DNA from: a virus | Lineage: Duplodnaviria > Heunggongvirae > Uroviricota > Caudoviricetes | DNA: 64,000 bases | Strand: one strand, 5' to 3' | Virus record (IMG/VR): IMGVR_UViG_3300046499_000850 | Part shown: positions 1,877 to 48,611 of the stretch, piece after piece | Numbering within the stretch: position 1 is the first letter of the stretch | How the letters are laid out: each line of letters opens with the position of its first letter | Notes under the pieces: model-generated | What the model was told of the DNA's origin: nothing | Databases searched by the model: none | What the model saw: only the letters and a program-made list of their open reading frames with translations | Program-made: the position numbers and the translations under genes

Positions 1877-2551
1877 TTGAAGATCAAAGGTAGCGGCCCG
1901 CTCAAAGACTGTGTGCTGGAATTCAATGGCCATGACCACAAAATCTCTCTCGTTCAAAGCAAAGCGACTGCTGAGAGAATCGAAGTAAAACTCGCTGAGA
2001 TTGATCTGGCGGGCTCGCTGGGAATCCGTCCTATGAATCATGACGCAGATCAAGAGGACGCCATCCTCATCAAGCACCATGGCAAGTTCCAGATTCTGTT
2101 GGGTCGTGATTCGGTCATCGATGGTTTCTCATCATTGCCGGTGGTGGCGATTAAAGCTCGTCTGATTTCATCGGTCGCCCTGAAAGCGGCACGGGTCGTG
2201 AAGGAACAACCGGCTCCGCCTGCCGCAGCGCCATTCAACCCGCCACGGTTCACGGACAACCGTGCACCGGGCGCAGCAAACCGTTACCCACCCCGCTACG
2301 GCGACCGTTCCACGGCGCCACGTGACAGCGATTACGGTAACCGGCCGCGTGAATCAACCAGCGGTCGCGACGCGTGGAACCGTCCGTATAACAGCAACCC
2401 GCGTTATGGCTCGGCCAACGCTGGCCCGGCGCCAGAACGCACGCGCACCTACGACCATATCCGCAACGACGCTGCGCGCTCAGCCGCGAGCTACCCGCCC
2501 AGCGGCAACCGCCAGACGTACGGCAAACCGCATAAAAAGACTTATCCGTAA
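1877..2551 (+). CDS. Hypothetical protein with R/P/G/Y-rich low-complexity C-terminal tail
   Basis: GAGGA SD before the TTG start; 224 aa ORF with phage-like codon usage. Confidence 0.75.
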   Translation: MKIKGSGPLKDCVLEFNGHDHKISLVQSKATAERIEVKLAEIDLAGSLGIRPMNHDADQEDAILIKHHGKFQILLGRDSVIDGFSSLPVVAIKARLISSVALKAARVVKEQPAPPAAAPFNPPRFTDNRAPGAANRYPPRYGDRSTAPRDSDYGNRPRESTSGRDAWNRPYNSNPRYGSANAGPAPERTRTYDHIRNDAARSAASYPPSGNRQTYGKPHKKTYP

Positions 2552-2619
2552 CACCGCAGTAACTACCACCTTGTAATCTGTTTAACCCTGTCGTACATAC
2601 CACCAAAAAGGAACGCAAC

Positions 2620-3129
2620 ATGAGCACCGAAAAATCCACCGACATCAAACTGAATCCGGCCGTCGACGAAATGTCGAGCAAGATCTACGAAGCCATCTCG
2701 GTCGCCAAGACCGGTGACGTCGAAGGTACCGACAACGTCTACGAGAGCACACTGCCCGTCGACCTGCCGGCCGAGATCGTCAAGCGCGTCAACGCCCACA
2801 ACGAACTGTTCATGGCTGCCGCCTACAACGCCACCGGCGACGCTGCGCGCGCTGCTGCCAAGGACAACCCCGGCCTGAAGCAAGTGAACGCCACGTTCGG
2901 CATGCTGGGTCGCAACAAGCTGGACGTCCAGTGGGACCGCGAAGTCGAGCGCAATGCCGGCATCGCCGAAAAGGGCCAGGTCGCCCCGAAGAAAACCGTG
3001 TACGGCGCCATGTCCGGCAAGCTGACCGTCGCCGGCACCGACACCGGTTCGGGTGAACTGAAGAAGGTCGCAATGCGCCAGAAGCAAGCCGCCTTCGACA
3101 TGTTCTCGCCAGCCACCACCGCAGCCTAA
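2620..3129 (+). CDS. Hypothetical protein (strongly biased codons, probably highly expressed)
   Basis: AAGGAA SD, ATG start, 169 aa with strong C-ending codon bias. Confidence 0.85.
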   Translation: MSTEKSTDIKLNPAVDEMSSKIYEAISVAKTGDVEGTDNVYESTLPVDLPAEIVKRVNAHNELFMAAAYNATGDAARAAAKDNPGLKQVNATFGMLGRNKLDVQWDREVERNAGIAEKGQVAPKKTVYGAMSGKLTVAGTDTGSGELKKVAMRQKQAAFDMFSPATTAA

Positions 3130-3925
3130 GCAACGCCGGCCTGGGTCGACGAGGGAATGGGTAGAGCTCACCAGGCACGCCTACATTTCCTATCGGCCTC
3201 ACCGCCAAAAGAAATCAACCGAGGGAACAGGGTTGTACGTTATCTTCGCGGTTAGCGTATAGCCCGGCCTTGGTTGGGGACGTGGCACCGTCCTGTGAGC
3301 CGCTGTTGCGGTAAGTGTCACATCAGTAGTACCTGCCAGTAGTACCTGCGAAGTCGGAAAGGTAGCTGCAACCTAAGCGTCGGCGCGCCACGTGTGGCAG
3401 CGCTCATGCGAATGACAGTTTTGAAACTAAGGGAACCGACCCCTATTGCAGCATCAGCAGTAACCCAGAGTTCCGGCTATGATCTATAATTCACATGTGG
3501 TATCGCGATTATAGAGATACGGCTAGGATGGCTAGGTCAATTCTGTATTCCGTCTAGATCACACTTCTGTATTGCGTAAAGGTGCAATGCGGGGTGTGGT
3601 GGTCGGATGCAGTACACGACTCTGGGTAGCAGTAAACCCGTTGCGGGACTAACCCGCAGCCGGGCGTAGCAAACTTCTAGCCGGTGGAGCGGTGCCCAAA
3701 TTGGTAAACGGACGAGGTAAAGTAGTTGTCGGGTATTGAAGGGCTTTGGCCTGCAAAACAATACTTGTGCTTTACGCTTACGGTCGAAAGACTTACGGGT
3801 TCGAGTCCCGTCCCTTTATCGGCTAGTTGTAAAGGAGTCCATGTTCTTCTTCCCCTCGCAAGAGAAAAGACCTCTGGTCGAACATGGTTTGTGGATACCC
3901 GCGCTGGTCTTCGGACTGGCGCGGG
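3130..3925 (+). ncRNA. Candidate large structured non-coding RNA region
   Basis: About 800 nt with no credible ORF. Nested G-U-rich helices (3216-3224/3268-3276, 3230-3242/3253-3265, 3463-3471/3619-3627). Contains a tRNA-like domain and ends in a UUCG hairpin. Confidence 0.55.
3677..3826 (+). ncRNA. tRNA-like element (Leu/Ser-type scaffold) with extended anticodon arm and extended acceptor helix
   Basis: D-arm TG-CCC-AAATTGGTAAAC-GGA, variable arm GGTC-GAAA-GACT, T-arm ACGGG-TTCGAGT-CCCGT. Closing helix ctagccggtggag/ctttatcggctag. No 7-nt anticodon loop and no CCA. Confidence 0.65.
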
Positions 3926-3948
3926 CGTCTATGCTGTTTATTTTTTCT
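3898..3948 (+). terminator. Hairpin (UUCG loop) + TATGCTGT + T-tract
   Basis: cccgcgctggtc-ttcg-gactggcgcggg, then TATGCTGT at 3930-3937 and a T run. Confidence 0.75.
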
Positions 3949-4031
3949 TCCCTAGGAGACACACCCTCAGCCAGCACGCTATCGTTGTCACGAACTGAAA
4001 CCTTTATTGTTGTACAATTTTGGAGAACAGT

Positions 4032-4529
4032 ATGTCCGACGACACTTTTATGCGCATCAGCAAGATCAAAGGCGGTTCCACCGATCACGAACACAAGGAC
4101 TGGATTAATGCGTGGGATCTCAGAATGGGGTTCTCGCAACCACGGTCCCCGGTCGCATCTACCGCTGGTGGCATGACAACGAGCAAAACCGTGCATAGGC
4201 CCTTGATCATCTCCAAGGGACTCGATCTCGCTTCGGCACAACTGATGCAGAACTGCTGCTCGGGCGAAACGATGGAAGAGATTATCATTGAGCGTTTCCG
4301 GGCGAACGGCGAGAAACGCGTCAAGTACATGGAGGTACGGATCTACAACGCCATCGTGAACAACATCGATCCATACTCCATCGACAACTACATGGCAGAA
4401 CAGATCGCTTTCGTCTACAGCAAGATCGGCTGGCGGCAAACCATCATGAGCGACGAAGGCCGTGAGCTCGGCAATACCTCGGGTGGCTGGGATTTGGGCA
4501 CCAACCGACCCTTTACCTTTGCGAGGTGA
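4032..4529 (+). CDS. hcp: Hcp/TssD family type VI secretion tube protein
   Basis: Matches the Hcp1 family pattern along its length: IKGGSTDHEHKDWI, FSQP, ASTAGG, IISKGLDLASAQLMQNCCSGE, FRANGEKRVKYMEV, EQIAFVYSKIGW, GNTSGGWDL. 165 aa; GGAGA SD before ATG 4032. Confidence 0.93.
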   Translation: MSDDTFMRISKIKGGSTDHEHKDWINAWDLRMGFSQPRSPVASTAGGMTTSKTVHRPLIISKGLDLASAQLMQNCCSGETMEEIIIERFRANGEKRVKYMEVRIYNAIVNNIDPYSIDNYMAEQIAFVYSKIGWRQTIMSDEGRELGNTSGGWDLGTNRPFTFAR

Positions 4530-4531
4530 GT

Positions 4532-4900
4532 ATGAAACGGTTGATTGCGATTGCTTTGCTGTTGCCTTGGGTGATGCTCAAAGCTGGCCCGCTATCCGAG
4601 AGCGTGACGGTCGAATCATTTCTCCAGGACTTTCGACCAACGCCTGAAGCTAACGAGCGCCCCCGCACACCAGAAGAATTTGTGCGCTATCAAAAAGCGC
4701 AAGGATTCGTGGATGGGGTCAAAGATGTGACGGAAAAGATCACGTGGTGCGCTGAGCCTACGGTGAAAGTCGTTGAGCTCGACAGCGAGATTTACCACGG
4801 ACTTCAGAAACTCACTGGTCCCCAGAAAAAGCAACGAGCAGGACCAGCCATCAAAAAGCAACTTCAACACCTTTACCCGTGTAAGGAGAAACATCCATGA
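4532..4900 (+). CDS. Rap1a/Tai-family periplasmic T6SS amidase immunity protein
   Basis: Signal-peptide-like N-terminus (MKRLIAIALLLPWVMLKA). GFVDGVKD...WC...LQHLYPC pattern with two Cys, typical of Rap1a. Lies directly upstream of a Tae4-like gene. Confidence 0.8.
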   Translation: MKRLIAIALLLPWVMLKAGPLSESVTVESFLQDFRPTPEANERPRTPEEFVRYQKAQGFVDGVKDVTEKITWCAEPTVKVVELDSEIYHGLQKLTGPQKKQRAGPAIKKQLQHLYPCKEKHP

Positions 4901-5373
4901 GTCGACCCAGTTACTTGCGGATGTACTCCAACTACCCACGCACCAGTCTTACCCACGATGATCTATTTGCTAGTCTGGGATGGCAGAGCATCATGCGCCA
5001 GCCGGAATACCACAACACCTGTGCGATCCGCATGTCTGTTGCATGTCTGACGGTGGGTGTGCGGTTTCCTCGGGGTGGTTTGGTGATTCAGTCTGGGGTA
5101 TTCAAAGGTCTGCGGTTGGAGCCCAGCCAAGCCAAGTTGTCCCACATGCTGGCTGAGATGTGGGGGGAACCGGAGAAATTTGACAGCCATGATTTTACTG
5201 AGGCCAAGTTTGGCAAACGGCACGGGGTGGCGTCATTCTTCAAGATCGATGGCGTGCACAACCAAGGTCATATCGACTTGATTGAACCGTTGGGTAATAC
5301 CTACCACTCATGCATCATGTCGGTAGGGTGCTATTTCGCTTCGTCCAGTATCTGGTTCTGGGAATTGCCATAA
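4897..5373 (+). CDS. tae4: Tae4/Ssp1-family T6SS peptidoglycan amidase effector
   Basis: Catalytic Cys motif NTCAIRMS, catalytic His motif GHIDL, and a C-terminal CYF...IWFWEL. No signal peptide. ATGA overlap couples it to the immunity gene. Confidence 0.9.
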   Translation: MSRPSYLRMYSNYPRTSLTHDDLFASLGWQSIMRQPEYHNTCAIRMSVACLTVGVRFPRGGLVIQSGVFKGLRLEPSQAKLSHMLAEMWGEPEKFDSHDFTEAKFGKRHGVASFFKIDGVHNQGHIDLIEPLGNTYHSCIMSVGCYFASSSIWFWELP

Positions 5374-5380
5374 TCACCAA

Positions 5381-5430
5381 CCCTCTTCCCGTGAAGGGAA
5401 GAGGGAGTATGACATCTATTTTTTTTTTGT
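5381..5430 (+). terminator. Terminator of the hcp-immunity-tae4 operon
   Basis: ccctcttccc-gtgaa-gggaagaggg, TATGACAT at 5408-5415, then a long T run. Confidence 0.8.
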
Positions 5431-5524
5431 TGTTAGGAACGTTTTAAGGCGTTTATTTCCTAAGTGCACAAGAATCTACTCAGCGGTATAAATAACGTCT
5501 CCTAGGGGCCTTAGAATCGCTTAC

Positions 5525-5576
5525 ACGGCATAATACCCATCCATCCCACGCCGGGGATGGATGGGATATATGACGT
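5525..5576. terminator. Hairpin flanked by ACGGCATA and TATGACGT (bidirectional), ending the tail tube gene
   Basis: cccatccatccc...gggatggatggg at 5536-5565 with the motif on both sides. Confidence 0.7.
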
Positions 5577-5579
5577 CAG

Positions 5580-6464
5580 TTAGACGTTGGTCTGACGTTG
5601 CGCCACAGCCTGCACGCTGGCGTCGAAACCGGTCAGGTTCGCAGCCTTCACGTCGGCACTGATCTGGTTGATCATTGCCTGCTTCATGAGCGGGTTGGCA
5701 CCCACGTAGTTGATGGTGTTCAGGATCTGCTGAGCGAACGCATCGACGCCGGCACCGACTTGTTGCAGGGCGGTGAACGACAGGTCAACGGTTTGGGTCT
5801 GCATGTCTTGGGTCTTGTCGGCCGAACCGACGATGTCGCCGGTACCTTCCGGGAACATGTTGAAGCACAGCCAAGCCTGCTGCACCTTGCGGCCGAACGC
5901 ATCTGGTTCGATGTACAGCACGGTCATGGTGGTTTGGTCGGCCAACAGGTCCGGGGCTTGACCGCCGAGCGACTGGAAAGCCGGCAGGGTGGTGACCATC
6001 GGGAACTTGGTGTCCGGGTCCATACCAGCGTAGGTCATCCAGGTCTCGATCAGGCGCTGGATCGGGCGACCGTAACGCTCGATGTACGAGTGCTTCGGCT
6101 GCGATTCAGCACGCTTGATGTTGGTCAGGTCACGCTGGGTTTGACCGGAACCACCGAACGCGTTTTCAGCGAACGAAGCGGTCAGGCCGCGGTTCAGACC
6201 TTCGACGTTCAGCCACTGGGTTTCGATCAGGGCACGCAGCGCCGAGATGTACTTGTCCGAGTTCGGGAAATACTTGAACAGGGCCGGGGCTTCGATGAGG
6301 ATCGGGATGAGGTGACGACGGACGTACGCTTGGTTGTTGACAAACGCCGCGTAGTCGGGAGCCCAGCCCATCTGACCGCCATAGGTCAGGTCAGCCATGG
6401 GAGCATTTGCACCCAGACCGTAAGCTGTGCCCGACTGCAAAATGGCACCATTTTGACGGGTCAT
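5580..6464 (-). CDS. Tail tube protein (phiKZ gp30-like)
   Basis: 294 aa, directly downstream of the sheath gene. LYIEPD...AWLCFNMFP motif seen in phiKZ-like tube proteins. Confidence 0.8.
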   Translation of the reverse strand: MTRQNGAILQSGTAYGLGANAPMADLTYGGQMGWAPDYAAFVNNQAYVRRHLIPILIEAPALFKYFPNSDKYISALRALIETQWLNVEGLNRGLTASFAENAFGGSGQTQRDLTNIKRAESQPKHSYIERYGRPIQRLIETWMTYAGMDPDTKFPMVTTLPAFQSLGGQAPDLLADQTTMTVLYIEPDAFGRKVQQAWLCFNMFPEGTGDIVGSADKTQDMQTQTVDLSFTALQQVGAGVDAFAQQILNTINYVGANPLMKQAMINQISADVKAANLTGFDASVQAVAQRQTNV

Positions 6465-23183: not shown

Positions 23184-23540
23184 ATGGAATTCATCAAATC
23201 GATCTGGAATCGTATCACCTCGTTCTTTGGTAACCTCTTCGGTGCCAAGAAAGAAGCTGCCAAAGTCGAAGCTGCTACCGTCAAGACCGAAGCTGCACAA
23301 GCTGCACAAACCGTGGTGGCTTCGGAAGAAGCTGCTGCCAAAGCTGCCCGCATGGAAAAGCTGGCTGAAGTGTTTAACCGCATTGCTCAAATCGCATCGT
23401 TCCGTAACTATTCGCTGGAAGAAGCCAAAGCCGCTTACCTGGCTGATGACATGGCGACCTTGGCGCGTATCGAACGTGAAATGAACGCCAAGAAGTACAA
23501 AGCCCCGAAGAAAGTCAAGCCTGCTAAGAAAGCAGCTTAA
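23184..23540 (+). CDS. Small protein with N-terminal amphipathic helix and Lys/Ala-rich tail (array member 1)
   Basis: GGAG SD; begins MEFIKSIWNRITSFFGNLF. Confidence 0.85.
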   Translation: MEFIKSIWNRITSFFGNLFGAKKEAAKVEAATVKTEAAQAAQTVVASEEAAAKAARMEKLAEVFNRIAQIASFRNYSLEEAKAAYLADDMATLARIEREMNAKKYKAPKKVKPAKKAA

Positions 23541-23588
23541 TTCTTCATCCTCCGTATTCCCATAATCAACAACACAAAGGAAACGATC

Positions 23589-23978
23589 ATGTTTGCATTT
23601 CTGAAAAAACTGTATCTGAAGCTGCGTAACTTCGTGGCCATTAACATCACCAAAGCCATGCGCTTCGCTGAGAAGACCATCGCCGCTGGTCGCGATGAAG
23701 GCCGCTTCCTGAAGCGTCTGGGTGGTTACACCATGCTGGTCGGCACCATCGTGGTCGCTTACCTGACCGCGGTATTCTTCGGCACGCTGCTGCTGATTGG
23801 TTTGATCTCGCTGATGGGTTCGATCGGCATGATCATCGGTTGCGCTATGCTGGGTTTCTTCTCCAGCGATGTGACCACCGCTGTTCTGAATTTCCGTGAA
23901 GGCGCTGAACTGGCTAGCGAAGACAACGAAGAAGAAGACTACTTCGTCGTGCTGGACGCTGTTGCTGCTGCAATCTAA
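23589..23978 (+). CDS. Membrane protein (array member 2)
   Basis: AAAGGA SD; begins MFAFLKKLYLKLRN; long hydrophobic segment. Confidence 0.85.
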   Translation: MFAFLKKLYLKLRNFVAINITKAMRFAEKTIAAGRDEGRFLKRLGGYTMLVGTIVVAYLTAVFFGTLLLIGLISLMGSIGMIIGCAMLGFFSSDVTTAVLNFREGAELASEDNEEEDYFVVLDAVAAAI

Positions 23979-24006
23979 TTAACAATTAACAACAAAGGAA
24001 ACAGTC

Positions 24007-24399
24007 ATGTGGAACTTCATCAAAAACCTGTACTTCAAGCTGCGTAACAGCATCGCCATCACCTACGTGAAAGCGATCGACTACAGCATGGAACTGGCCA
24101 ACAAAGCCCGCGCCATCGCTCACGCTGCCGGCGGCTCCACCTTCAAGAGTGTCATGCTCTACGTCGCCAGCTTCGCCGTGTTCTGCGTGTCGTACCTGGT
24201 CTTCAAGATCATGGTTGGTCTGATCTTCACCGGTATGGCCGCGTTGCTGGCGCTGGCGCTGGGTGAGACCCTGGCCATCCTGGTATCGTTCGTGCTGCTG
24301 GTGGTGTTCGTGGTCGACCTGATCGAAACCATCGAATTTCTGGCCCGCATCAGCCGTACCCTGCGTCACGCGTTCGGCGGTACCACCGTCTACGCATAA
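24007..24399 (+). CDS. Membrane protein (array member 3, paralog of 23589-23978)
   Basis: MWNFIKNLYFKLRNSIAITYVKA aligns with MFAFLKKLYLKLRNFVAINITKA; similar upstream leader. Confidence 0.85.
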   Translation: MWNFIKNLYFKLRNSIAITYVKAIDYSMELANKARAIAHAAGGSTFKSVMLYVASFAVFCVSYLVFKIMVGLIFTGMAALLALALGETLAILVSFVLLVVFVVDLIETIEFLARISRTLRHAFGGTTVYA

Positions 24400-24451
24400 C
24401 CCTGAGGGAGAGTTTCCTCTCCCTGTTTATAATTAACAACAAGGTAACATC

Positions 24452-24844
24452 ATGAACTTCCTGAAGAAATGGTTTAACAAAGTGATCAGCTGGATGGCGC
24501 ATCCGATCGCCATGATCTGCGACAAAGCGACTGCTCTGCTGGGTCCGGCCATCACCTACGTCAACACCGATCACAACCTCAAGTGGTCGTTCAAGACCAT
24601 CGCCAAAGTTGTGGCAGGTGCACTGTTGGTGGTCTTCCTGGGTCTGACCATCGGCGCCCTGATGGTCGCTAGCATCGCCGGTTTCACCCTGTTGTTCGCG
24701 CTGGTCCTGCCGTCGCTGCTCGCCAACCTGATCGCAGTGCTGGGCGTGGGTTACATCGCGTACCAAGTTTTCCAAAAGGTCGACCACTATCGTGCCGATG
24801 AGATCGTCATCGAAATCGAAGTCGAGACCGAACCACAAGCTTAA
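24452..24844 (+). CDS. Membrane protein (array member 4)
   Basis: Begins MNFLKKWFNKVISWM; long hydrophobic segment. Confidence 0.85.
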   Translation: MNFLKKWFNKVISWMAHPIAMICDKATALLGPAITYVNTDHNLKWSFKTIAKVVAGALLVVFLGLTIGALMVASIAGFTLLFALVLPSLLANLIAVLGVGYIAYQVFQKVDHYRADEIVIEIEVETEPQA

Positions 24845-24886
24845 CTCCCCTTTTTCGCTGTACCTTTTTTCACAAGGAGCATTACC

Positions 24887-25252
24887 ATGGAAACCATCAA
24901 AAACTTCTTCAAAGGCGTCGCCAAGTTCGCCTACGACTTCTTCATCGGCCCGATCGTCGAGCTGCGTAATTTCTTCACCATGTCGAACACGGTGAAAGCC
25001 CTGTCGATCATCAACGCCGCCAGCCGCGTGATCGTCATCGCTTCGTGGTTCTTCGCTGTGCCGGCCGTTCTGGTCACCCTGGCTTGGGTCTGGATCTGGA
25101 CCACGGTCGCCGTCGCGGTGCTGTATATCGTGTTCTCGATGGGTAGCCTCGCTGCCGCCGGTGCTTTCGGTGCTGACCTGGCTGCCAAGCTGCACGCTGC
25201 CAACGACGGCGCAGCTGAGCAAGCTGCTGCGACTGAACCGGCTGCCGCCTAA
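24887..25252 (+). CDS. Membrane protein (array member 5)
   Basis: AAGGAG SD; begins METIKNFFKGVAKFAYDFF; hydrophobic core. Confidence 0.85.
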   Translation: METIKNFFKGVAKFAYDFFIGPIVELRNFFTMSNTVKALSIINAASRVIVIASWFFAVPAVLVTLAWVWIWTTVAVAVLYIVFSMGSLAAAGAFGADLAAKLHAANDGAAEQAAATEPAAA

Positions 25253-25257
25253 CAACC

Positions 25258-25554
25258 ATGTGGCGTTTTATCAAAACGCTCTTCCAATCTCTCTACCGGC
25301 ACACGGTAGGGGGGTTGGTGAGGCTGGTACGCCATACGGCTCAGGCCACTGTGGACCGGGAAGACAAGCAATTCGTGGCCCGCGCGATGCGGTATTTCAC
25401 GTTGGCTGTCGTGTTCTGGTTCTTCCCGGTTCTGACCGGGCTGCTGCTCGCCCTGCGTATCATGGCGCTCTCCGATGTGTTTAGCATCGTGAGCAACGTG
25501 TACGAAGATGTCGTGACAGCGTTTGGCGTCCACAACGTGACTACCCCTGCCTGA
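25258..25554 (+). CDS. Membrane protein (array member 6)
   Basis: Begins MWRFIKTLFQSLY; hydrophobic segment. Confidence 0.75.
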   Translation: MWRFIKTLFQSLYRHTVGGLVRLVRHTAQATVDREDKQFVARAMRYFTLAVVFWFFPVLTGLLLALRIMALSDVFSIVSNVYEDVVTAFGVHNVTTPA

Positions 25555-25594
25555 TCTTCAGGTAGTGGGTACGATTCCCACACCTGGAGGTAAC

Positions 25595-25894
25595 ATGGGT
25601 AAGTTTGTCAGCTTTATCAAAAGCCTTTTCTTTGCAGTGAAGGTAATCGCTACCGCAATCGCGGCACCGGTGACCCAGTTGGTGAGAACTACTTGGGAAA
25701 AGAGGCCGATCAGTGTCGGCCAATTGCTGTTTGCTATCTGGCGTTTGTTCGTCTGGGCGTTCTTCGTCCTGTGCGTCACGGCGTCGGTTGGTGTGCCAGC
25801 GGTGATCGCGTATTTGTTCCTCGTCGATCTTGCGATCGTCGGGGTGCAGATCGTGTCGGTGGCAGCCATTAACGTGAAGGAGAAATTAGCATGA
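25595..25894 (+). CDS. Membrane protein (array member 7)
   Basis: GGAGG SD; begins MGKFVSFIKSLFF. Confidence 0.8.
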   Translation: MGKFVSFIKSLFFAVKVIATAIAAPVTQLVRTTWEKRPISVGQLLFAIWRLFVWAFFVLCVTASVGVPAVIAYLFLVDLAIVGVQIVSVAAINVKEKLA

Positions 25895-26256
25895 AACAGT
25901 TTTTCGACACCCTTGCGGTGTTTGTCGGCAACCTCTTGGAGCTCACGCCGAAGTCCTGGCTGGAATCCAAGCGCCAAGCGCAGAAAATGCGTGACGCCAT
26001 CAAGACCTGGGTCGCTACCCCGCCGATCATTGACAAAGACGGCAAGGAAACGGAAGTGGCTGCGCCAGAATCGCCTTACGGTTATCTGGCCCGCACGACC
26101 CTGCTGGCGCTCGGCTTCATAGGTCTGGCGTGGGTCATCTCGCAAGTCGTGATGGCCTTCGTCTACGTGTTGCCGGTCCTGGCTGGTCTGGCTGTCGTGG
26201 CCCTGATCGTCAGCTTGTACGGTCCCAAGAAGGCTGAACAACCAGCCGCTGCGTGA
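25891..26256 (+). CDS. Membrane protein (array member 8)
   Basis: AAGGAG SD and ATGA overlap; two C-terminal hydrophobic helices. Confidence 0.8.
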   Translation: MKQFFDTLAVFVGNLLELTPKSWLESKRQAQKMRDAIKTWVATPPIIDKDGKETEVAAPESPYGYLARTTLLALGFIGLAWVISQVVMAFVYVLPVLAGLAVVALIVSLYGPKKAEQPAAA

Positions 26257-26324
26257 ACCGTACCGTAAGAAACATCCTGCTTTACAATCTCGTGATACAT
26301 CAATTTAAACCAAGGAGAAAGATC

Positions 26325-27050
26325 ATGTCGAACAATCAACCGAAACACATCATCCACGCCACTGGCGTCATCAAAACCCGTATCGAAGAGCTGCGCAAGC
26401 TGGTCGCATCCACCCCGGACGGCGAAGAACGTGAAGCCCACAAGAAGGAACTGAGCGAACTGCTGGCCTCGATTGGCCTCGACGGCATCGGCATCGAAAT
26501 CACCCCGGCTGACAACGGTGAAGGCGTCGCCGCCAAGATCCTGGGCAGCGTGAACGCAGCAACCGAGCAACTCGGTAAAGTGGCCGGCGCCCCGGTCGAC
26601 GAAGTGAAGAAGGTCGAAGTCAAGGTCGAAGGCGCCAACGGTGAGAAGGTCACCTCGACCACCACCGTCAACGTCGAAAAGCCGGGCCTGTGGACCCGCT
26701 TTAAGGCATGGTGCGCTGAAAACAAGAAGAAGGTGATCGCGGGTGGTCTGGCCCTCGTGGCCGGCGCAGCTGGGCTGTGGTACTGGCTCAATGGTAAAAA
26801 TACCAGCGTCGCTGTATCTTCTGTGGCCGATGCCGAAGTGACCATCGATACCACCACCGTCGAACCCTCCACCCCGGCTGAAGCCGATCCGTCGATCTTC
26901 ACCCGCATCGGGGAATGGGTCGTCAACGCTGCTGCCACCGTCAAGGGCTGGACAGTGTCGGCCTGGACCTGGGTGAAGGGCCTGTTTACCCGCAACACCA
27001 CCTCGGAGACCACCGTTGATACCACGGCCGAAACCCCAGTTGCCGCGTAA
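26325..27050 (+). CDS. Membrane-anchored protein with Trp-rich amphipathic helices (array member 9)
   Basis: AAGGAG SD; LWTRFKAWCAENKKK followed by a transmembrane segment; IFTRIGEWVV...AWTWVKGLF. Confidence 0.85.
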   Translation: MSNNQPKHIIHATGVIKTRIEELRKLVASTPDGEEREAHKKELSELLASIGLDGIGIEITPADNGEGVAAKILGSVNAATEQLGKVAGAPVDEVKKVEVKVEGANGEKVTSTTTVNVEKPGLWTRFKAWCAENKKKVIAGGLALVAGAAGLWYWLNGKNTSVAVSSVADAEVTIDTTTVEPSTPAEADPSIFTRIGEWVVNAAATVKGWTVSAWTWVKGLFTRNTTSETTVDTTAETPVAA

Positions 27051-32204: not shown

Positions 32205-33266
32205 ATGACTGACACCACCAAAAACGCAATCAAAGAAGCATTCCCCAAAGGCCGTGTCCGTGTTTATGCCTGCGGCGGCGCCTCGATTAACATCATGGCT
32301 GACCTGGGTGCGCTGGAAATCAACCCGGACCTGATGGCTGACTTCCACGTTGTCCAGCTGGATACCAGCAAATCGAACATGCACGCGCGCGCCAGCAATT
32401 ACGAGCAGTACCTGCTGCCGAAGATGGCCAACACCGACTCGGTCGACGGTGGCGGTAAAGATCGCGCTGAAAACAAAGCTCTGATCGAACAACACGCCGA
32501 CCCGATCCTGAAGATGTACCCGCCGCTCGAAGCGAACATCGTGATCTCGACAGGCTCGGGCAGCTCGGGTTCGGTGCTCGCGCCGGAACTGGTCAACAAG
32601 CTGCTGGCCCGCGGGGAAGCTGTGGTCGTGCTGCTGATCGGCACCACCGGTTCGCGTATCGAGGCGCTGAACTCGATCGGCACCATGACCAACTACGAGC
32701 AGATCGCCAAGGCCCGTCAGATGCCGGTCATCATGAGCTACCTGCAAAACTCGCCGGACATGCCGCGCGAAAAGGTCAACGTCCACATGCTGTCGACGAT
32801 CTCGTACCTGGGTATGCTGTTCTCGCGGCGCAACAACGGCATGGATACCAAGGACACCAGTAACTGGCTGAACTTCACCAAGCCGGGGCTGACCAAGGGC
32901 CTGCTGCCGCAGCTGTACAGCCTGACCATCTTGCTGCGCAGCTTCACCGCGAACGGCGAGGAAGAGTTCGCGGACAACCTCGACAAACTCGGCAACATCC
33001 TGTCGGTAGCCACCCTGACCCGCGCCGGCACGCCGCCGGAACTGCCGCCCGAGTACATGCCGGAATATCACACGGAAGGCTTCGTGCCCGATCTGCGTGA
33101 CAGCAAAGTCTTCGACGGTCAATCGGCCAACTTCATCATCAGCGACGGCCTGGTCAACAGCTTCATGGCCAGCCTGAAGTCGTTCTCCAAGCGTCAGCGT
33201 CCGAACGTCGTTCAGTTCGCCGCGTCGCAGGACGAAGACGACGAACCAACCGTCAGCTTCAGCTAA
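32205..33266 (+). CDS. phuZ: PhuZ/TubZ tubulin-like spindle protein
   Basis: VYACGGASINI (T1), LDTSKSN, GGGKDR, STGSGSSGS (T4-loop variant), NNGMDTKD (T7), acidic tail. Confidence 0.9.
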   Translation: MTDTTKNAIKEAFPKGRVRVYACGGASINIMADLGALEINPDLMADFHVVQLDTSKSNMHARASNYEQYLLPKMANTDSVDGGGKDRAENKALIEQHADPILKMYPPLEANIVISTGSGSSGSVLAPELVNKLLARGEAVVVLLIGTTGSRIEALNSIGTMTNYEQIAKARQMPVIMSYLQNSPDMPREKVNVHMLSTISYLGMLFSRRNNGMDTKDTSNWLNFTKPGLTKGLLPQLYSLTILLRSFTANGEEEFADNLDKLGNILSVATLTRAGTPPELPPEYMPEYHTEGFVPDLRDSKVFDGQSANFIISDGLVNSFMASLKSFSKRQRPNVVQFAASQDEDDEPTVSFS

Positions 33267-43611: not shown

Positions 43612-45636
43612 ATGAAAACTGGTACCCAGAACCCGGCCCCGAACACCAACACCGGTGGCCAACAGAATGACCAGATGGCACAAGCCTACACCCAAGCCGC
43701 CGGTCAAGCCGGCCAGGGTCAAGCCAACTATCAGCAGCCGCCGCAAGGTGGCGCTCCCGTCGGCGGCGCCCGTCCGGGTGGCATCAGCGCTCTGCTGAGC
43801 CGTGGTCGCATCGGCGGCATGCCGCAGAACGGTGGCCGCGATGTCGCCGAACTGGCGAAGAAACTGCAAGATTACTACGAGACCCAGAAGACCACCGACC
43901 TGAACGGTATCAACGTCCGCATCGTCCCGGCAACCCGCGGTTCGATCATCGGCGCCGAGAACAACAGCAACGCGATCGGCCTGATCATGGTCATCGTCGA
44001 AGGCTCGGACAACCGCGTCGCCTACCACACCCTGCTGATCGCGTCCGACATGTCGATGACCGCACCGACCCGCACCAACGAACTGTACGGTCAGTACGCA
44101 CAAGAGCAGATCACCGCTCCGCGTACCCCGGCAACCCTGGCCGACGAAGCCCTGGCCAAGGTCATCCGTTTCCGCGTCGCGCAGATCGTCCCGCAGAGCA
44201 ACCTGATCAACGCCGACTGGACCACGGTGCCGACCAGCTTCAAGATCAACGATCCGGTCGCTGTCGCCACCCTGTTCCTGAACGCACTGCGCGCCTGCTG
44301 GACCGAACTGGAAACCAAGACCCCGGGTTTCCGTTACGACAGCCTGTCGAGCGTCGCCGGCGACGGCATCCTGGTCAACTCGGTGCACTTCAACCAAGAC
44401 CAGGTCAACCCCCCGGTGGAAGCATTCGACCCGGCCGGCAATCCGATCCGTGGCGAAGTCGTCGCAGCCTTCCGTTCGGAGCAGCCGCGTCAGACCAACC
44501 GCGCCGACCAGACCGAAAACACCGCAGGCGTGATGGACCTGGGCACCACCCTGGCCTCGATCACCCTGAATATCGATCCGGTCCCGGCACGTGCCAACCG
44601 TTACATGGGCATGCCGGCGCAGCAAGGCAACGAAGCCACCCAGGAATACAGCGCTGAAGTGACCATGACCGGTTTCGACATGCGCCTGACCCCGGACCTC
44701 GGCAATGTCCTGCTGCAGCTGTCGACGATCTTCGCGGTGCTGAACTCGCAAGAGCGTCCGTGGCTGCGCAACTTCCTGCCGCGTCACCTGCAAATGAACG
44801 GCGCGTCGCCGACCCGTCACGACAACTTCCGTCCGCGTGACCTGGGCGCCCTGAACTTCGACTACGGCCTGAAAACCATGGTCGACGGCCAGATGGTCGT
44901 GGCACCGTTCCCGACCAACAACCAGAACGAGTTCGGCATCGAGAATTACTACGCGCTGGTCAACGCAATCATCCAGCCGGCGCCGGCGCTGTCGATCGAC
45001 TGCGGTATCGCTGGTGCGGAAACCTGGTTCACCCGTATCTTCGCTGAAGCTAGCGATGTGCCGGAAGCCTACCAGGCGATCGTGTCGGCGATGGACGCCC
45101 TGACGGACAACCGTTTCAGCCAGCTGTTCTTCACCCCGCAGTCGAGCCGCCTGATCGTCCTGCCGCGCGCCGAGCGCGTGCTGAATGGTTTCTACATCGA
45201 CGGCGACGGTCGTCCGCAAGACCTGCGCAACGTGGACCTGCTGTTCGTCATGAACGCCAAGGGTCACGAAGATCCGGAAATCGGCCGCCGCTGGGCCGCT
45301 ACCTTCGGTGGCAGCAACGATGCTCAACTGGCCGCCCGTGCCAAGATCATCGAGCAGGTCGTACACAACGTGACCTACACCGGCATCTCGATCCACAAGA
45401 CCTTCCACCCGGACTTCATCCGTGCGGCAGACCAGTCGATCGAGCAAACCGGTTTGCGTCCGCGTATCGAAATCGCCCAGCAGGACAACCGCATGGCAAT
45501 GCGTACGCCGTACGGTCTGGCGCAAGCAGGTGCGCTCAACGCCGGCTTCGTGCCGACGATGTTCCAGAACGGCCCGGCCTACGGCGGCGGCGCGCAGGCT
45601 GGCTACCGCAGCATGGCGCACACCCGCACGTACTAA
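43612..45636 (+). CDS. chmA: Chimallin, major phage nucleus shell protein (phiKZ gp54-like)
   Basis: 674 aa with a disordered Q/G N-terminus and very strong codon bias. Early promoter upstream, terminator downstream, and directly before nvRNAP beta'-N. GNPIRGEV, RPRDLGALN and GFYIDGDGRPQDLRNVDLL resemble ChmA segments. Confidence 0.85.
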   Translation: MKTGTQNPAPNTNTGGQQNDQMAQAYTQAAGQAGQGQANYQQPPQGGAPVGGARPGGISALLSRGRIGGMPQNGGRDVAELAKKLQDYYETQKTTDLNGINVRIVPATRGSIIGAENNSNAIGLIMVIVEGSDNRVAYHTLLIASDMSMTAPTRTNELYGQYAQEQITAPRTPATLADEALAKVIRFRVAQIVPQSNLINADWTTVPTSFKINDPVAVATLFLNALRACWTELETKTPGFRYDSLSSVAGDGILVNSVHFNQDQVNPPVEAFDPAGNPIRGEVVAAFRSEQPRQTNRADQTENTAGVMDLGTTLASITLNIDPVPARANRYMGMPAQQGNEATQEYSAEVTMTGFDMRLTPDLGNVLLQLSTIFAVLNSQERPWLRNFLPRHLQMNGASPTRHDNFRPRDLGALNFDYGLKTMVDGQMVVAPFPTNNQNEFGIENYYALVNAIIQPAPALSIDCGIAGAETWFTRIFAEASDVPEAYQAIVSAMDALTDNRFSQLFFTPQSSRLIVLPRAERVLNGFYIDGDGRPQDLRNVDLLFVMNAKGHEDPEIGRRWAATFGGSNDAQLAARAKIIEQVVHNVTYTGISIHKTFHPDFIRAADQSIEQTGLRPRIEIAQQDNRMAMRTPYGLAQAGALNAGFVPTMFQNGPAYGGGAQAGYRSMAHTRTY

Positions 45637-45755: not shown

Positions 45756-47093
45756 ATCGGTACTTACCTGCGTATTGTAAGTCACGACGACTTGTGGGCT
45801 TCCCAGTCGCGTACTGACCCGATCATTATCAACGATTTCCAGGAATGCTCGGACAGCGCGCTCAAAGCGTTCAAAGAGAAGATCTTCACGCGGTACCAGC
45901 CCAATGACGTTCTAACCAACACCCCGCGCTGCCATTGCCCAACCGGCGAAGGTTTGCAAGGTCGCCGATTCCTCGGGGTGGTGTGCAACAACTGCAACAA
46001 ACCCGTGATGAACGTCCGGGAGCAAAAGCTGGAATCCCTCGTGTGGTTGAAGCAGCCGAAAGATGTCGCGAAGCTGATCAACCCAACCATCTGGACGATT
46101 CTGTCGAACCACTTCAAGAAAGGGCGGTTTAACGTCATCCACTGGTTGTGCGACACCAAGTATCCGGTGCCGGACAAACCCCCCAAGATCTTTGCGCAGT
46201 TGCAAACGATGGGGCTGGAACGCGAGCGGGGTTACAACAAGTTCGTTCAAAACTTCTTCCACACCGTTGATGACAAGACGGGTGAGATCATCGGCCCAGG
46301 GATCATTGAGAAGCTGCTGACCATCAGTGACTTCCGGAAGAAGAAGCAAGACAATCCGAACGAGGTCCATCACATTCTGAAGTTGTTGCAGATGAACCGT
46401 GAGAAGATCTTCTCGGAACGACTCGCCCTACCTAACAAAACCTTGTTGGTGGTCGAGGATACGGACATGGCGGTGTATGTCGACTCGAACGTACCGATTG
46501 CGATTGATGCGATCGAATCGTTGATCGGTCTCGACGACCCACTGAACAACTACAGTTCAACCATGCGCCAAAACCGGGTGGTGCGGGCTATCGCAAATCT
46601 GGCCACGTATTACCAAGAGTTCAACAAGAAGTCGTTCTCATCGAAGGAGGGCATTTCACGTAAACACCTAGCGGCAACCCGCTGCGACTGGTCGTTCCGT
46701 GCAGTGATTACTTCGCTGACGGCGGACCACTACCACCGCGAACTCCACATCCCGTGGGGCGTAGCCATGGGCTTACTGCGTTTACACCTAGCGAAGAAGC
46801 TCAAAGAACGTGGTTGGTTGCCCAACGAAGTGTGGCGGTTCTTGAACCGTTATGCGACGGAATTCAACCCATTGATTAACGAGTTGTTCATCGAACTGAT
46901 CAATGAATCGAAATGGGAAGTGGCACCAGACTCCGGTGTCAAGGGTCTGCCCACGATCTTCCAGCGTAACCCGAGTCTCGGCTTGGGCTCGATGCAGTTG
47001 TTCTACATCAGCAAGGTCAAGACTGATGCCGCCGACCAAACAGTATCACTCAGCATCTTAACAGTCAGAGGGTTCAATGCTGATTTCGACGGT
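45756..47093 (+). CDS. Non-virion RNA polymerase beta' N-terminal subunit (phiKZ gp55-like), exon 1
   Basis: Zn finger CHC...CNNC; RKHLAATRCDWSFRAVI; FQRNPSL; GFNADFDG at the exon end. Start inferred at ATC 45756 after a GAGGAG SD; the ORF caller starts at TTG 45792. Confidence 0.88.
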
Positions 47094-48611
47094 AAATACT
47101 CATCGCTGTCGTTAAACTTTCCTAACCGCGGGAAGTCCCTTAGAGTCTTTTCTACCAACCTGATCCAGAAATGTATCAGCGGCCGATGTAATGATCTCGG
47201 GTATGGTAACAACGAAAAGAATTGGGTAATCCGCCTCAAAGCTTCTAGAGCAGAAGTGCGATCAACGACCATCGAAACCGCCTAGCAATAGGACAAGGGA
47301 GTAGAGTAGGCTTACAAGTAGACGACTGTTCAATCGTCTATCCCAAGCGGGGGCCGAAACGGAAAGCATTCGAAAGAATGAAGATATGGTCTAGCCCGGC
47401 ATGAAAGTGTCGGTAATCATTGACTGGACATCAATGGTGCTGGTGTAGCGAACCAGTAGTTTCTATCGTTTTCGTATTGTAATAAACACAGAAAGGAAAC
47501 CCATGGAGATAAAACCTATTCCAGGAACACTCGGGTTTCTGGCAGATTCGGAAGGCGGCATCTACGACCAAGACATGGTCAAAAGAAACACCTACGCTAA
47601 TGGCGATAAATACGTTACCGTTAATTTAGAAGTTATTGAATTTGGTTTGAAGAAACAGATTACCGCCGGCGTTCATCGTCTGATTGCTTTCGCCTTTCAT
47701 GGTGAGCCCGTGGGAGAAAAAAATTACGTTAATCACCGAGACTTGAATCCTGCCAATAATCGAGCAGATAATGTCGAATGGGTTACTCCTTTGCAGAATA
47801 ACATCCACCTAAAAGTGATGAAGAAAGACAATCATCGCTTCTGCGTTGTAGGTGAGCGAATTAATCGCGATGCAAATACTCGACTAACTCAAGGTTTCAT
47901 GAGTGTGTGGGATGCAGAAGAGAAGACCGGTGTACCGCACTTGATGGTTTGGGATTCGATTAAAGACGAGAAACCTGTCGAAGGCTGGCGCTTTTCGTTT
48001 AAGAAGTACTCGGGTAGTATTCCGAAGGAACTTCAAAAAGAAAAGATCAAAGAACGTAAAGTAGATGACGGCAAAGTACCTATCAGAGGTGTGAAGTTCC
48101 GCAATATCGATACCGGTGAAGTGTTGGAGTTTGAATCATTCATCGCTGCCGGTAAACACTTCGATACGTATCCTAGTCATATCCACCAAGCGATCCCGTA
48201 TCGCGATGTGGTAAGGATTTTCAAAAAGCAATACCAAGTAGCTTACCTCGATCACGACTTCCAAGACATTACGGAAGCCGACATCGAGAAAGCGCGCGGG
48301 CATGGTAAGAAGCAAGTAGCGGCATGGCATCATAGCCGTGAGCAACTTTACCTGTACGAAAGTGCTGCGGAGTTTATTGCACACAGCAAACTTACCAGGC
48401 CAGTTGTGTTTTACGCTTTAGGTAAAAACAATCTTCGTCGTTTAGGGGATTGGACAGTAGTGTATTACGAAGAGCAGAACGTCAGTAAAATGTTAGATCA
48501 TGTCAAGGGGTCCAGCCCGGATGTGGTTTGAATACAACAACGATAGAAACGATAAAAGTTAACTGAAAATTTATCCGTTCAGTTAATACAATGAGTCCGT
48601 AAGGGCTCGCA
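47094..48611 (+). mobile_element. Group I intron inserted in the RNAP catalytic NADFDG|D motif
   Basis: P1: exon GACGGU pairs with GCUGUC (47105-47110), with a U-G at the splice site. P10: CUCAUC (47099-47104) pairs with exon 2 GAUGAG. P/Q: ccgcgggaa and aatccgc. P7: GACCA (47267-47271) with UGGUC (47387-47391) inside AAGAUAUGGUC. Splicing restores DFDGDEMN. Confidence 0.9.
47503..48531 (+). CDS. Intron-encoded HNH homing endonuclease (I-HmuI-like HNH plus NUMOD1-like repeats)
   Basis: VHRLIAFAF...VNHRDLNPANNRADNVEWVTPLQNNIH; AAAGGA SD; AT-rich; looped out by the stem gtttctatcgtt/aacgatagaaac. Confidence 0.9.
   Translation: MEIKPIPGTLGFLADSEGGIYDQDMVKRNTYANGDKYVTVNLEVIEFGLKKQITAGVHRLIAFAFHGEPVGEKNYVNHRDLNPANNRADNVEWVTPLQNNIHLKVMKKDNHRFCVVGERINRDANTRLTQGFMSVWDAEEKTGVPHLMVWDSIKDEKPVEGWRFSFKKYSGSIPKELQKEKIKERKVDDGKVPIRGVKFRNIDTGEVLEFESFIAAGKHFDTYPSHIHQAIPYRDVVRIFKKQYQVAYLDHDFQDITEADIEKARGHGKKQVAAWHHSREQLYLYESAAEFIAHSKLTRPVVFYALGKNNLRRLGDWTVVYYEEQNVSKMLDHVKGSSPDVV

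Follow-up and report, generated by a model that had tools for sequence, protein, structure and literature searches.

The closest described relatives of the locus reported here are two sets of bacterial type VI secretion system (T6SS) genes, the hcp-tai-tae set of Agrobacterium (PDB entry 6IJF) and the Ssp1-Rap1a pair of Serratia (PDB entries 4BI8 and 4BI3). Small cargo effectors bind within the ring of their cognate Hcp, Ssp1 and Ssp2 being cargo amidases (PMC4924876 and PMC11925235). The Agrobacterium effector AtTae, for which the roles of C47, C144, and C148 are known, cleaves D-Glu-meso-diaminopimelate (D-Glu-mDAP) bonds, causes cells to elongate, and holds back competitors that are growing, yet kills weakly (PMC7811202). 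T6SS effector clusters have also been published for temperate phages. Ralstonia prophages carry vgrG-type auxiliary clusters, and one such phage was isolated as particles (PMC11481896); the B. gladioli temperate phage AB4 carries a PAAR2 cluster (PMC13366799). Here, we analyze a cassette of the genes hcp, rap1a, and tae4, arranged in the same hcp-immunity-effector order as in the Agrobacterium loci, within a 64,000-nucleotide stretch (the window) of a Caudoviricetes genome of ∼273 kb (IMG/VR record IMGVR_UViG_3300046499_000850). The cassette is real, accessory phage DNA and is under selection in tae4. A preliminary description, made from the sequence of the window, had proposed such a cassette without reference to the published temperate-phage clusters; what appears new is a chimallin-encoding jumbo phage as the carrier, a module of the Hcp type, and a divergent Hcp.

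The hcp-rap1a-tae4 cassette

The cassette comprises three intact open reading frames (ORFs) in the same orientation, the first two separated by a 2-nucleotide (nt) gap and the last two joined by an ATGA overlap, with Shine-Dalgarno (SD)-like words before each start (GGAG for hcp, GAGGT for rap1a, and AAGGAG for tae4). Both order and coupling are those of the bacterial genes. All three products exceeded the Pfam cutoffs of their families. Hcp matched PF05638 (E value, 6e-30; 104.6 bits against a cutoff of 23.5) and TIGR03344 (69.7 bits against 58.9), with 7FCF and 4W64 the closest solved Hcps, and its AlphaFold (AF2) model (predicted local distance difference test [pLDDT] score, 88.7) has the Hcp beta-barrel fold, with a template modeling (TM) score of 0.88 to 4W64 in Foldseek. 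Rap1a matched PF18602 (E value, 3.5e-8; 34.3 bits against 27.7), its best solved relatives being Serratia Rap1a (4BI8) and Agrobacterium Tai4 (6IJF). Tae4 matched PF14113 (E value, 7.4e-11; 42.7 bits against 27) and lies nearest, among solved structures, to Agrobacterium Tae4 (6IJF; E value, 2e-25) and Serratia Ssp1 (4BI3). Among the 92 ORFs of the window scanned against Pfam (ORFs lying mostly inside others already scanned were skipped), no other T6SS family was present; the cassette is a carrier, a toxin, and an immunity gene set within phage DNA, and the 64 kb hold no T6SS core genes.

Tae4 falls in the same subgroup as the Agrobacterium and Serratia effectors and shares their fold, their catalytic and structural cysteines, and a Rap1a-type partner. 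Its model (AF2; pLDDT score, 93.5) gave TM scores of 0.87 to 6IJF, 0.85 to 4BI3, and 0.76 to EcTae4. The residues C42 (NTCAIRMS), H125, and D127 (both in GHIDL) are invariant in 11/11 aligned homologues, the C-terminal pair C139/C145 is nearly invariant, and 33 of 37 conserved columns are retained, which makes Tae4 the best-conserved member of the cassette; we predict it to be an active amidase. By hydropathy, Tae4 lacks a signal peptide, and only Rap1a of the three proteins has a hydrophobic N terminus (Kyte-Doolittle 9-mer score of 2.91 versus 0.03 and 0.72). The two cysteines of Rap1a, C73 and C117, are invariant in 28/28 homologues. By analogy with the described loci, an unexported amidase, an exported inhibitor, and a dedicated Hcp form the arrangement of Hcp-carried T6SS cargo. 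The profile and structure searches that the preliminary description had proposed bear out its family assignments. Also confirmed are its coupled ORFs with SD sequences of their own, the intact catalytic cysteine and histidine of Tae4, and the absence of other T6SS genes among the scanned ORFs; the signal peptide it had given the two-cysteine immunity protein holds as a hydrophobic N terminus seen by hydropathy alone.

A model of the Tae4-immunity complex had been suggested as well. A Rap1a dimer with Tae4 scored 0.87, compared to 0.01 for the best control (the mark for such models is reached by 116/157 solved and 2/215 mismatched pairs), with at least 91% contact agreement between runs and a partner pLDDT score of at least 90. 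The modeled interface takes in C42 and H125, placing Rap1a over the active site. Because like complexes have already been solved (4BI8 and 6IJF), the score may derive from those structures, and the model shows likeness to known complexes rather than binding.

The stretch is present in four public runs, all from 2023 rhizosphere metagenomes; two of these may be the source of the window itself, and the four possibly belong to one campaign. A single contig spans both cassette junctions in each of three assemblies (X1, X2, and X3), while the fourth run (X4) holds the stretch in short pieces only and was left out. X3 represents a distinct strain, with the cassette joined to the tail tube gene on a 237,294-bp contig, and proteins of the window are also encoded on contigs of 273,341 and 272,297 bp (JGI and Logan). 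Since three assemblies bridge both junctions and one of them is a different strain, the cassette is integrated and not a contaminant, as had been surmised.

The X3 cassette differs from that of the window at eight positions, six in tae4 and one each in hcp and rap1a. All six single nucleotide polymorphisms (SNPs) in tae4 are synonymous, compared to an expected 22% (P = 1e-4; counting three clustered SNPs as one event leaves 4 events and gives a P of ∼0.002); for comparison, 12/13 SNPs in the tube gene are synonymous between the strains. This excess shows, at the sequence level, purifying selection on Tae4. With one SNP each, selection was not detectable for hcp or rap1a at this strain depth.

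In all three related jumbo phages compared (IMG/VR loci L003 to L005; tail tubes 86, 66, and 80% identical), the syntenic site is empty and the flanks are the same. No Hcp, Rap1a, or Tae4 was found anywhere in the complete one of these relatives (G003; 272,470 bp with direct terminal repeats). Thus, the cassette is accessory.

Carrier phage, related modules, and origin

The window shares with the Chimalliviridae the nuclear shell protein chimallin, the tubulin PhuZ, split multisubunit RNA polymerase subunits, an S80 head protease, and a phiKZ-type sheath and tube. The carrier is therefore of the Chimalliviridae type by gene content, and nucleus formation is predicted, in agreement with the earlier view of a nucleus-forming phage. 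The tail tube of the nearest cultured phage is 43% identical. PhiKZ-like phages are regarded as lytic, and the carrier is presumed to be so; the 92 scanned ORFs, from 64 kb of the ∼273-kb genome, include no integrase.

The preliminary description had placed the cassette between core virion genes and between the phage's own hairpin and TATG signals. The first point stands downstream, where the tail tube gene follows; upstream lie 902 noncoding bases (3130 to 4030) with a tRNA-like element and, beyond them, two genes without assigned function. The second stands on both sides: hairpin-TATG elements number 15 in the window versus 0 to 2 in five shuffles, and the copies at 3897 to 3933 and 5380 to 5411 frame the cassette, whereas the empty sites of L003 to L005 have one hairpin-TATG-T-run element. 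In phiKZ late promoters, TATG is a core that is required but does not suffice, and its G is the start (PMC4666361), which makes G3933 a candidate start; PMC11512511 contains no passage on TATG. The majority of the 15 sites come after the end of a gene and could be nothing more than terminators. They mostly read TATGCCG, occur on both strands, often stand back to back between convergent genes, and are candidates for terminators, late promoters, or processing sites. As for a terminator belonging to the cassette, the hairpin and T-run are there, but the spacing is noncanonical (the T-run begins ∼12 nt past the downstream stem), and a standard scan for sigma-70 promoters and terminators returned 1 promoter-like and 0 terminator-like sites, which is chance level.

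The upstream spacer differs between strains, X3 having 391 other bases in place of 3463 to 3918, a segment that includes the tRNA-like element. The loose end of X3 suggests that a differing hairpin sequence is kept before the same TATG. The element itself resembles a cloverleaf whose anticodon arm is lengthened by some 40 to 60 nt; ARAGORN at default settings called nothing in the window, and Rfam matched nothing in 2500 to 6000. T-arm-like words can be seen by eye in the spacers of L004 and L005, and the complete relative has several intron-type tRNA calls near 162 to 163 kb.

All three proteins have homologue clusters well above the bacterial ones: five for Hcp (that of the window and P0013 to P0016, at 55 to 62% identity), three for Tae4 (with P0002 at 76% and P0003 at 66%), and two for Rap1a (with P0061 at 55%). 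At 55 to 76% identity, these homologues remain full length. The jumbo-clade Hcps group with a Shimodaira-Hasegawa-like approximate likelihood ratio test (SH-aLRT) value of 91 in a quick tree and the jumbo-clade Tae4s with a value of 99 in FastTree, both trees being unrooted and carrying long-branch-join warnings. With a profile built from these same sequences, the jumbo Tae4 cluster scored 342 bits, compared to 163 for the next, among 1.84 billion representatives. In line with a tree comparison that had been proposed, jumbo Hcp and Tae4 each form a clade of their own, with Massilia/Telluria the nearest named neighbors of Tae4.

Seven of these proteins (P0002, P0003, P0013 to P0016, and the Tae4 P0065) are known as proteins alone, without surrounding DNA. 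IMG/VR scans with the Tae4 and Hcp of the window, the jumbo-clade alignments, and P0015 yielded no confirmed locus, and one metagenome scan yielded two distant loci only. The Hcp P0015 and a tail tube 87% identical to that of the window (P0224) each occur on 5 contigs, the longest of 271,466 bp, and P0065 likewise occurs on a 271,466-bp contig. P0218, which is P0015 read from an upstream start, reads through TRAGLRTGAGFYAVYF, matching the frame of the window across the hairpin at 3897. The contigs with P0003, P0218, and P0014 measure 189,638, 80,425, and 74,064 bp, respectively. Because P0015, P0224, and P0065 share the 271,466-bp figure and P0218 shares the upstream DNA, the cassette probably has a diverged counterpart in a second jumbo species. 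If so, it would have kept to one site as Hcp fell to 55% and Tae4 to 67% identity, a faster drift than that of the tube.

Among the 80 best of 127 bacterial Tae4 loci, mostly from Oxalobacteraceae, 40 had all three genes, 27 had rap1a and tae4, and 13 had tae4 only. No other T6SS family was found near the 12 of the 40 full loci that were annotated (Massilia/Telluria type; filtered subset of 78 ORFs). Five Massilia/Telluria genomes (G004 to G008) each contain 1 or 2 tssC genes but 3 to 12 matches to hcp, fragments included; such numbers are consistent with a "bring your own Hcp" layout. In the same genomes, 7/20 hcp loci (L146 to L165) carry rap1a-tae4; the rest may mark unknown Hcp-carried effectors.

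The 60 loci retrieved from IMG/VR lie on 50 contigs, of which 21 carry all three genes, 9 carry rap1a-tae4, 19 carry hcp only, and 1 carries none. The 19 contigs with hcp and no rap1a-tae4 may carry other effectors. Thirteen of the 60 loci were annotated (131 of 170 listed ORFs): nine have an upstream integrase, and seven of these also have a downstream endolysin. The eight full modules among them lie between integrase and endolysin (L094, L097, L125, and L134), in a tail operon (L107), beside terminase genes (L128), after an integrase (L099), or with no virion gene (L089). Modules such as L094:7062-8477, L097:7167-8477, L107:7935-9342, and L125:8001-9326 (range, L086 to L144) sit in small, mostly temperate contigs, and one temperate phage (L098:2909-4659) combines rap1a-tae4 with a diversity-generating retroelement (Avd and reverse transcriptase).

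In an unrooted FastTree analysis, the temperate-phage Tae4s interleave with Massilia chromosomal copies. Because chromosomal and temperate-phage copies share the module and their Tae4s interleave, the module is, as judged by its sequences, a mobile Oxalobacteraceae plug-in that also travels on temperate phages. The jumbo cassette is likely an old capture from the Massilia/Telluria (Oxalobacteraceae) pool; the donor is a best guess, given the unrooted trees and their long-branch-join warnings. GC content is 51 to 54% in the cassette versus 56 to 61% in neighboring core genes, and codon usage scores for phage versus Massilia origin (hcp, −0.03; rap1a, −0.14; tae4, +0.02) fall in overlapping ranges that do not separate the two origins.

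Possible roles of the cassette

The preliminary description had listed arming of the host T6SS, protection of the infected cell, jamming of host T6SS assembly, and cell wall remodeling or lysis, choosing none of them. Given that Oxalobacteraceae chromosomes and temperate phages carry the same three-gene plug-in, we favor arming, in which phage Tae4 is loaded into the T6SS of the infected cell, and rate its chances as about even; jamming or protection stays in play. Transcription of the operon by the phage RNA polymerase would begin at the hairpin-TATG site, and the phage Hcp ring would bind and stabilize Tae4 and stack into the host Hcp tube, as is presumed for chromosomal orphan Hcps. The host sheath would fire Tae4 into touching cells, where D-Glu-mDAP bonds would be cut and nonimmune neighbors, uninfected kin included, would be slowed or weakened. 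Sec-exported Rap1a would shield the periplasm of the infected cell from the Tae4 of coinfected neighbors. The benefit would lie in a fitter or longer-lived infected cell and in weakened walls nearby. We put forward more tentatively, at somewhat below an even chance, that a lytic nucleus-forming lineage has domesticated a T6SS module, with an Hcp subfamily of its own, phage late control, and takeover of the T6SS by either firing or jamming.

Several observations weigh against arming. A phage with a lytic cycle would have only a short time in which to benefit, the host T6SS may stop during infection, and close relatives of the carrier do without the cassette. The phage Hcp is 39 to 40% identical to five Massilia/Telluria main-cluster Hcps, whereas 13 Massilia/Telluria orphan Hcps are 64 to 78% identical to their own main-cluster Hcp. 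It retains 35 of 55 columns conserved in the nearest bacterial subfamily, compared to a median of 54 and a minimum of 22 in 92 nonjumbo rows that include other subfamilies; the GES glutamate is lost (E15G), and G11K, E26N, and R52K are further changes. Between the strains, the single SNP in hcp (M32I) and that in rap1a (V80A) are both nonsynonymous. Finally, the Ssp1/AtTae subgroup consists of weak killers (PMC7811202).

Hcp keeps Q36, P37, S39, G46, and G47 in a region that corresponds positionally to the L2,3 loop; in B. pseudomallei Hcp1, rings cannot stack without this loop (PMC4650826). Nine changes at conserved columns are common to all five jumbo-clade Hcps (at Q8, E15, P69, D92, G118, Y136, Q139, and G144 and as a deletion of G94). 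These shared substitutions suggest a changed interface and would fit a coevolving private carrier or a jammer alike. No Hcp more than 51% identical to P0014 was present in 201 sampled genomes of the presumed donor's order, so that this search pointed to no host. Because the phage Hcp is unusually divergent, jamming or protection is a live, if less probable, alternative.

The same divergence would suit a disarming role, in which Hcp poisons or down-regulates the host T6SS, by dominant-negative rings or by feedback from its accumulation, while Rap1a shields the cell from Tae4-type attack and Tae4 is kept mainly by linkage or for a secondary role. The long branch of Hcp, its low identity to main-cluster Hcps, and the nine clade-wide changes agree with this account, and a review reports T6SS gene down-regulation when Hcp accumulates (PMC11925235). 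We nevertheless consider it unlikely: the best-conserved member is Tae4, whose purifying selection would be needless for a pure decoy, the stacking-loop residues of Hcp are kept, and, in IMG/VR scans seeded by Hcp and Tae4 only, 9/50 contigs carry rap1a-tae4 without hcp and none carry rap1a alone. Tae4 might instead act independently of the T6SS in lysis or wall remodeling, with Rap1a timing or limiting it and Hcp serving as a folding chaperone. An enzyme predicted to be active, the frequent proximity of the module to lysis genes in temperate phages, the cell elongation seen upon AtTae expression (PMC7811202), and the faster erosion of Hcp (35/55 conserved columns kept versus 33/37 in Tae4) are all compatible with such a wall enzyme. 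No holin or spanin adjoins the cassette, however, Tae4 has no export signal, those temperate phages retain endolysins of their own, and the complete relative has no Tae4, which together make this role quite improbable in our estimation.

That the cassette is a passenger, acquired at a tRNA-like hot spot through recombination with, for example, a coresident temperate phage, and is now decaying or unexpressed, we regard as very doubtful. The empty site in 3/3 relatives, the unstable upstream spacer, and the conserved residues lost from Hcp are what this would predict, but all three frames are intact, the tae4 SNPs are without exception synonymous, the 55 to 76% identical jumbo-clade homologues are still full length, and signals of the phage itself frame the cassette. 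The cassette neighbors the genes for tail tube and sheath and is preceded by a TATG site of the late type, which raises the idea of virion cargo, with an Hcp ring (a tail tube fold) carrying Tae4 in the particle and aiding peptidoglycan crossing at infection. The cassette is convergent with the tube operon rather than part of it, relatives with 66 to 86% identical tubes lack it, and unrelated phages and chromosomes have the same module; we judge a virion role highly improbable. A chimeric assembly joining bacterial DNA to a phage contig, to which the lower GC content and the failure of codon usage to tie the genes to the phage might point, is refuted by the single contigs of X1, X2, and X3 that bridge both borders, that of X3 being from another strain, and by the 272- to 273-kb contigs from JGI and Logan; we give it practically no weight. 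Arming of the host T6SS is the reading that we carry forward.

Other features and comparison with described systems

Features of the cassette, its flanks, and the carrier are collected below. Elsewhere in the window, a GIY-YIG/NUMOD homing endonuclease gene (3 to 881; 38% GC) lies upstream of the head protease gene and is absent from that site in L003 and L005; the X3 contig departs from the window at 879. About 10 short, co-oriented hydrophobic ORFs at 23184 to 27050, without Pfam matches and with similar basic N termini (MFAFLKKLY, MWNFIKNLY, MNFLKKWF, and MWRFIKTLF), look like a paralogous membrane protein array. An RNA polymerase subunit ORF (45792 to 47285) appears shortened, and an HNH endonuclease ORF (47285 to 48531; 45% GC) comes after it, which suggests an intron-split gene.

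Features of the cassette, its flanks, and the carrier phage in the window
Feature	Position	Strand	Description	Basis or remark
hcp	4032..4529	+	T6SS tube/carrier protein, 165 aa, divergent jumbo-phage subclade	PF05638, TIGR03344, fold
rap1a/tai4-type	4532..4900	+	Predicted periplasmic immunity protein, 122 aa, Cys73 and Cys117	PF18602, PDB Rap1a 4BI8 and Tai4 6IJF
tae4	4897..5373	+	Ssp1/AtTae-type peptidoglycan amidase effector (predicted), 158 aa	PF14113, PDB 6IJF and 4BI3
Hairpin, TATG, and T-run	3897..3950	+	Upstream of hcp; candidate late start G3933 (inferred)	Fold −29.5 kcal/mol
Hairpin, TATG, and T10 run	5380..5430	+	Closes cassette; probable terminator	Noncanonical spacing
tRNA-like element	3685..3820	+	Extended anticodon arm	Relaxed-threshold ARAGORN with introns; fold z −2.2
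Conserved jumbo-phage gene	2620..3129	+	Upstream flank; function not assigned	PHROG 9746; syntenic in L003, L004, L005
Tail tube, phiKZ type	5580..6464	−	Downstream flank, convergent with cassette	PF23806 E 1e-97
PhuZ tubulin	32205..33266	+		PDB 3ZBP E 4e-25; PHROG 4733
Chimallin	43612..45636	+	Nuclear shell protein	PDB 8FNE E 1e-14, 7SQT; PHROG 4795; PF25677 E 3.6e-25

A survey of 50,697 phage records for the cassette, the preliminary description having proposed one of Chimalliviridae genomes, gave no match for Tae4, one weak match for Rap1a (E value, 0.05), and four for Hcp. Of these four, the one inspected belongs to a bacterial T6SS cluster, another comes from a like-named record, and the remaining two lie on small contigs without annotation. 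The inspected record, "Acinetobacter phage MD-2021a" (L190; CAKLQH020000001.1; 328 kb), whose hcp lies in a full T6SS cluster, looks like a bacterial chromosome filed as a phage and was rejected as a precedent. A DNA search of cultured phages with the cassette gave no match. In openly available full text, we found no jumbo or lytic phage reported to carry an Hcp-Rap1a-Tae4 module or another T6SS effector module, although an earlier report is possible; in PMC12035536, the T6SS appears in a reference title only.

If the arming proposal is true, a lytic phage joins bacterial contact warfare through the host's secretion machine while it replicates, and auxiliary phage genes extend from metabolism and antidefense to interbacterial killing. 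With only three genes, the cassette is a compact system for asking if the T6SS stays active, and has any importance, while a jumbo phage infects the cell, and how much divergence an Hcp tolerates before it no longer enters the host tube. That jumbo phages, temperate phages, and Massilia/Telluria chromosomes have one plug-in in common suggests phages as a route of T6SS effector exchange in the rhizosphere.

Compared to the described systems, the phage proteins are about 32 to 34% identical to those of Agrobacterium and Serratia, and the Agrobacterium set lies in the main T6SS cluster (PMC7811202), whereas the phage set stands alone. Closer are the stand-alone modules of Massilia/Telluria (L007 to L012 and others), which match the cassette in gene content, order, size, and overlap, lack other T6SS genes in their surroundings, and encode proteins 35 to 47% identical to those of the phage; no paper characterizing these stand-alone hcp-rap1a-tae4 modules was found in the full-text literature. 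The clusters of temperate phages resemble that of the jumbo phage in combining a carrier, a toxin, and an immunity protein that rely on the host machine. Those of the Ralstonia prophages and AB4 differ in using VgrG or PAAR carriers, in residing on prophages, and in benefits that accrue to the lysogen, whereas the jumbo-phage cassette has an Hcp carrier, a peptidoglycan target, and a carrier phage presumed to be lytic.

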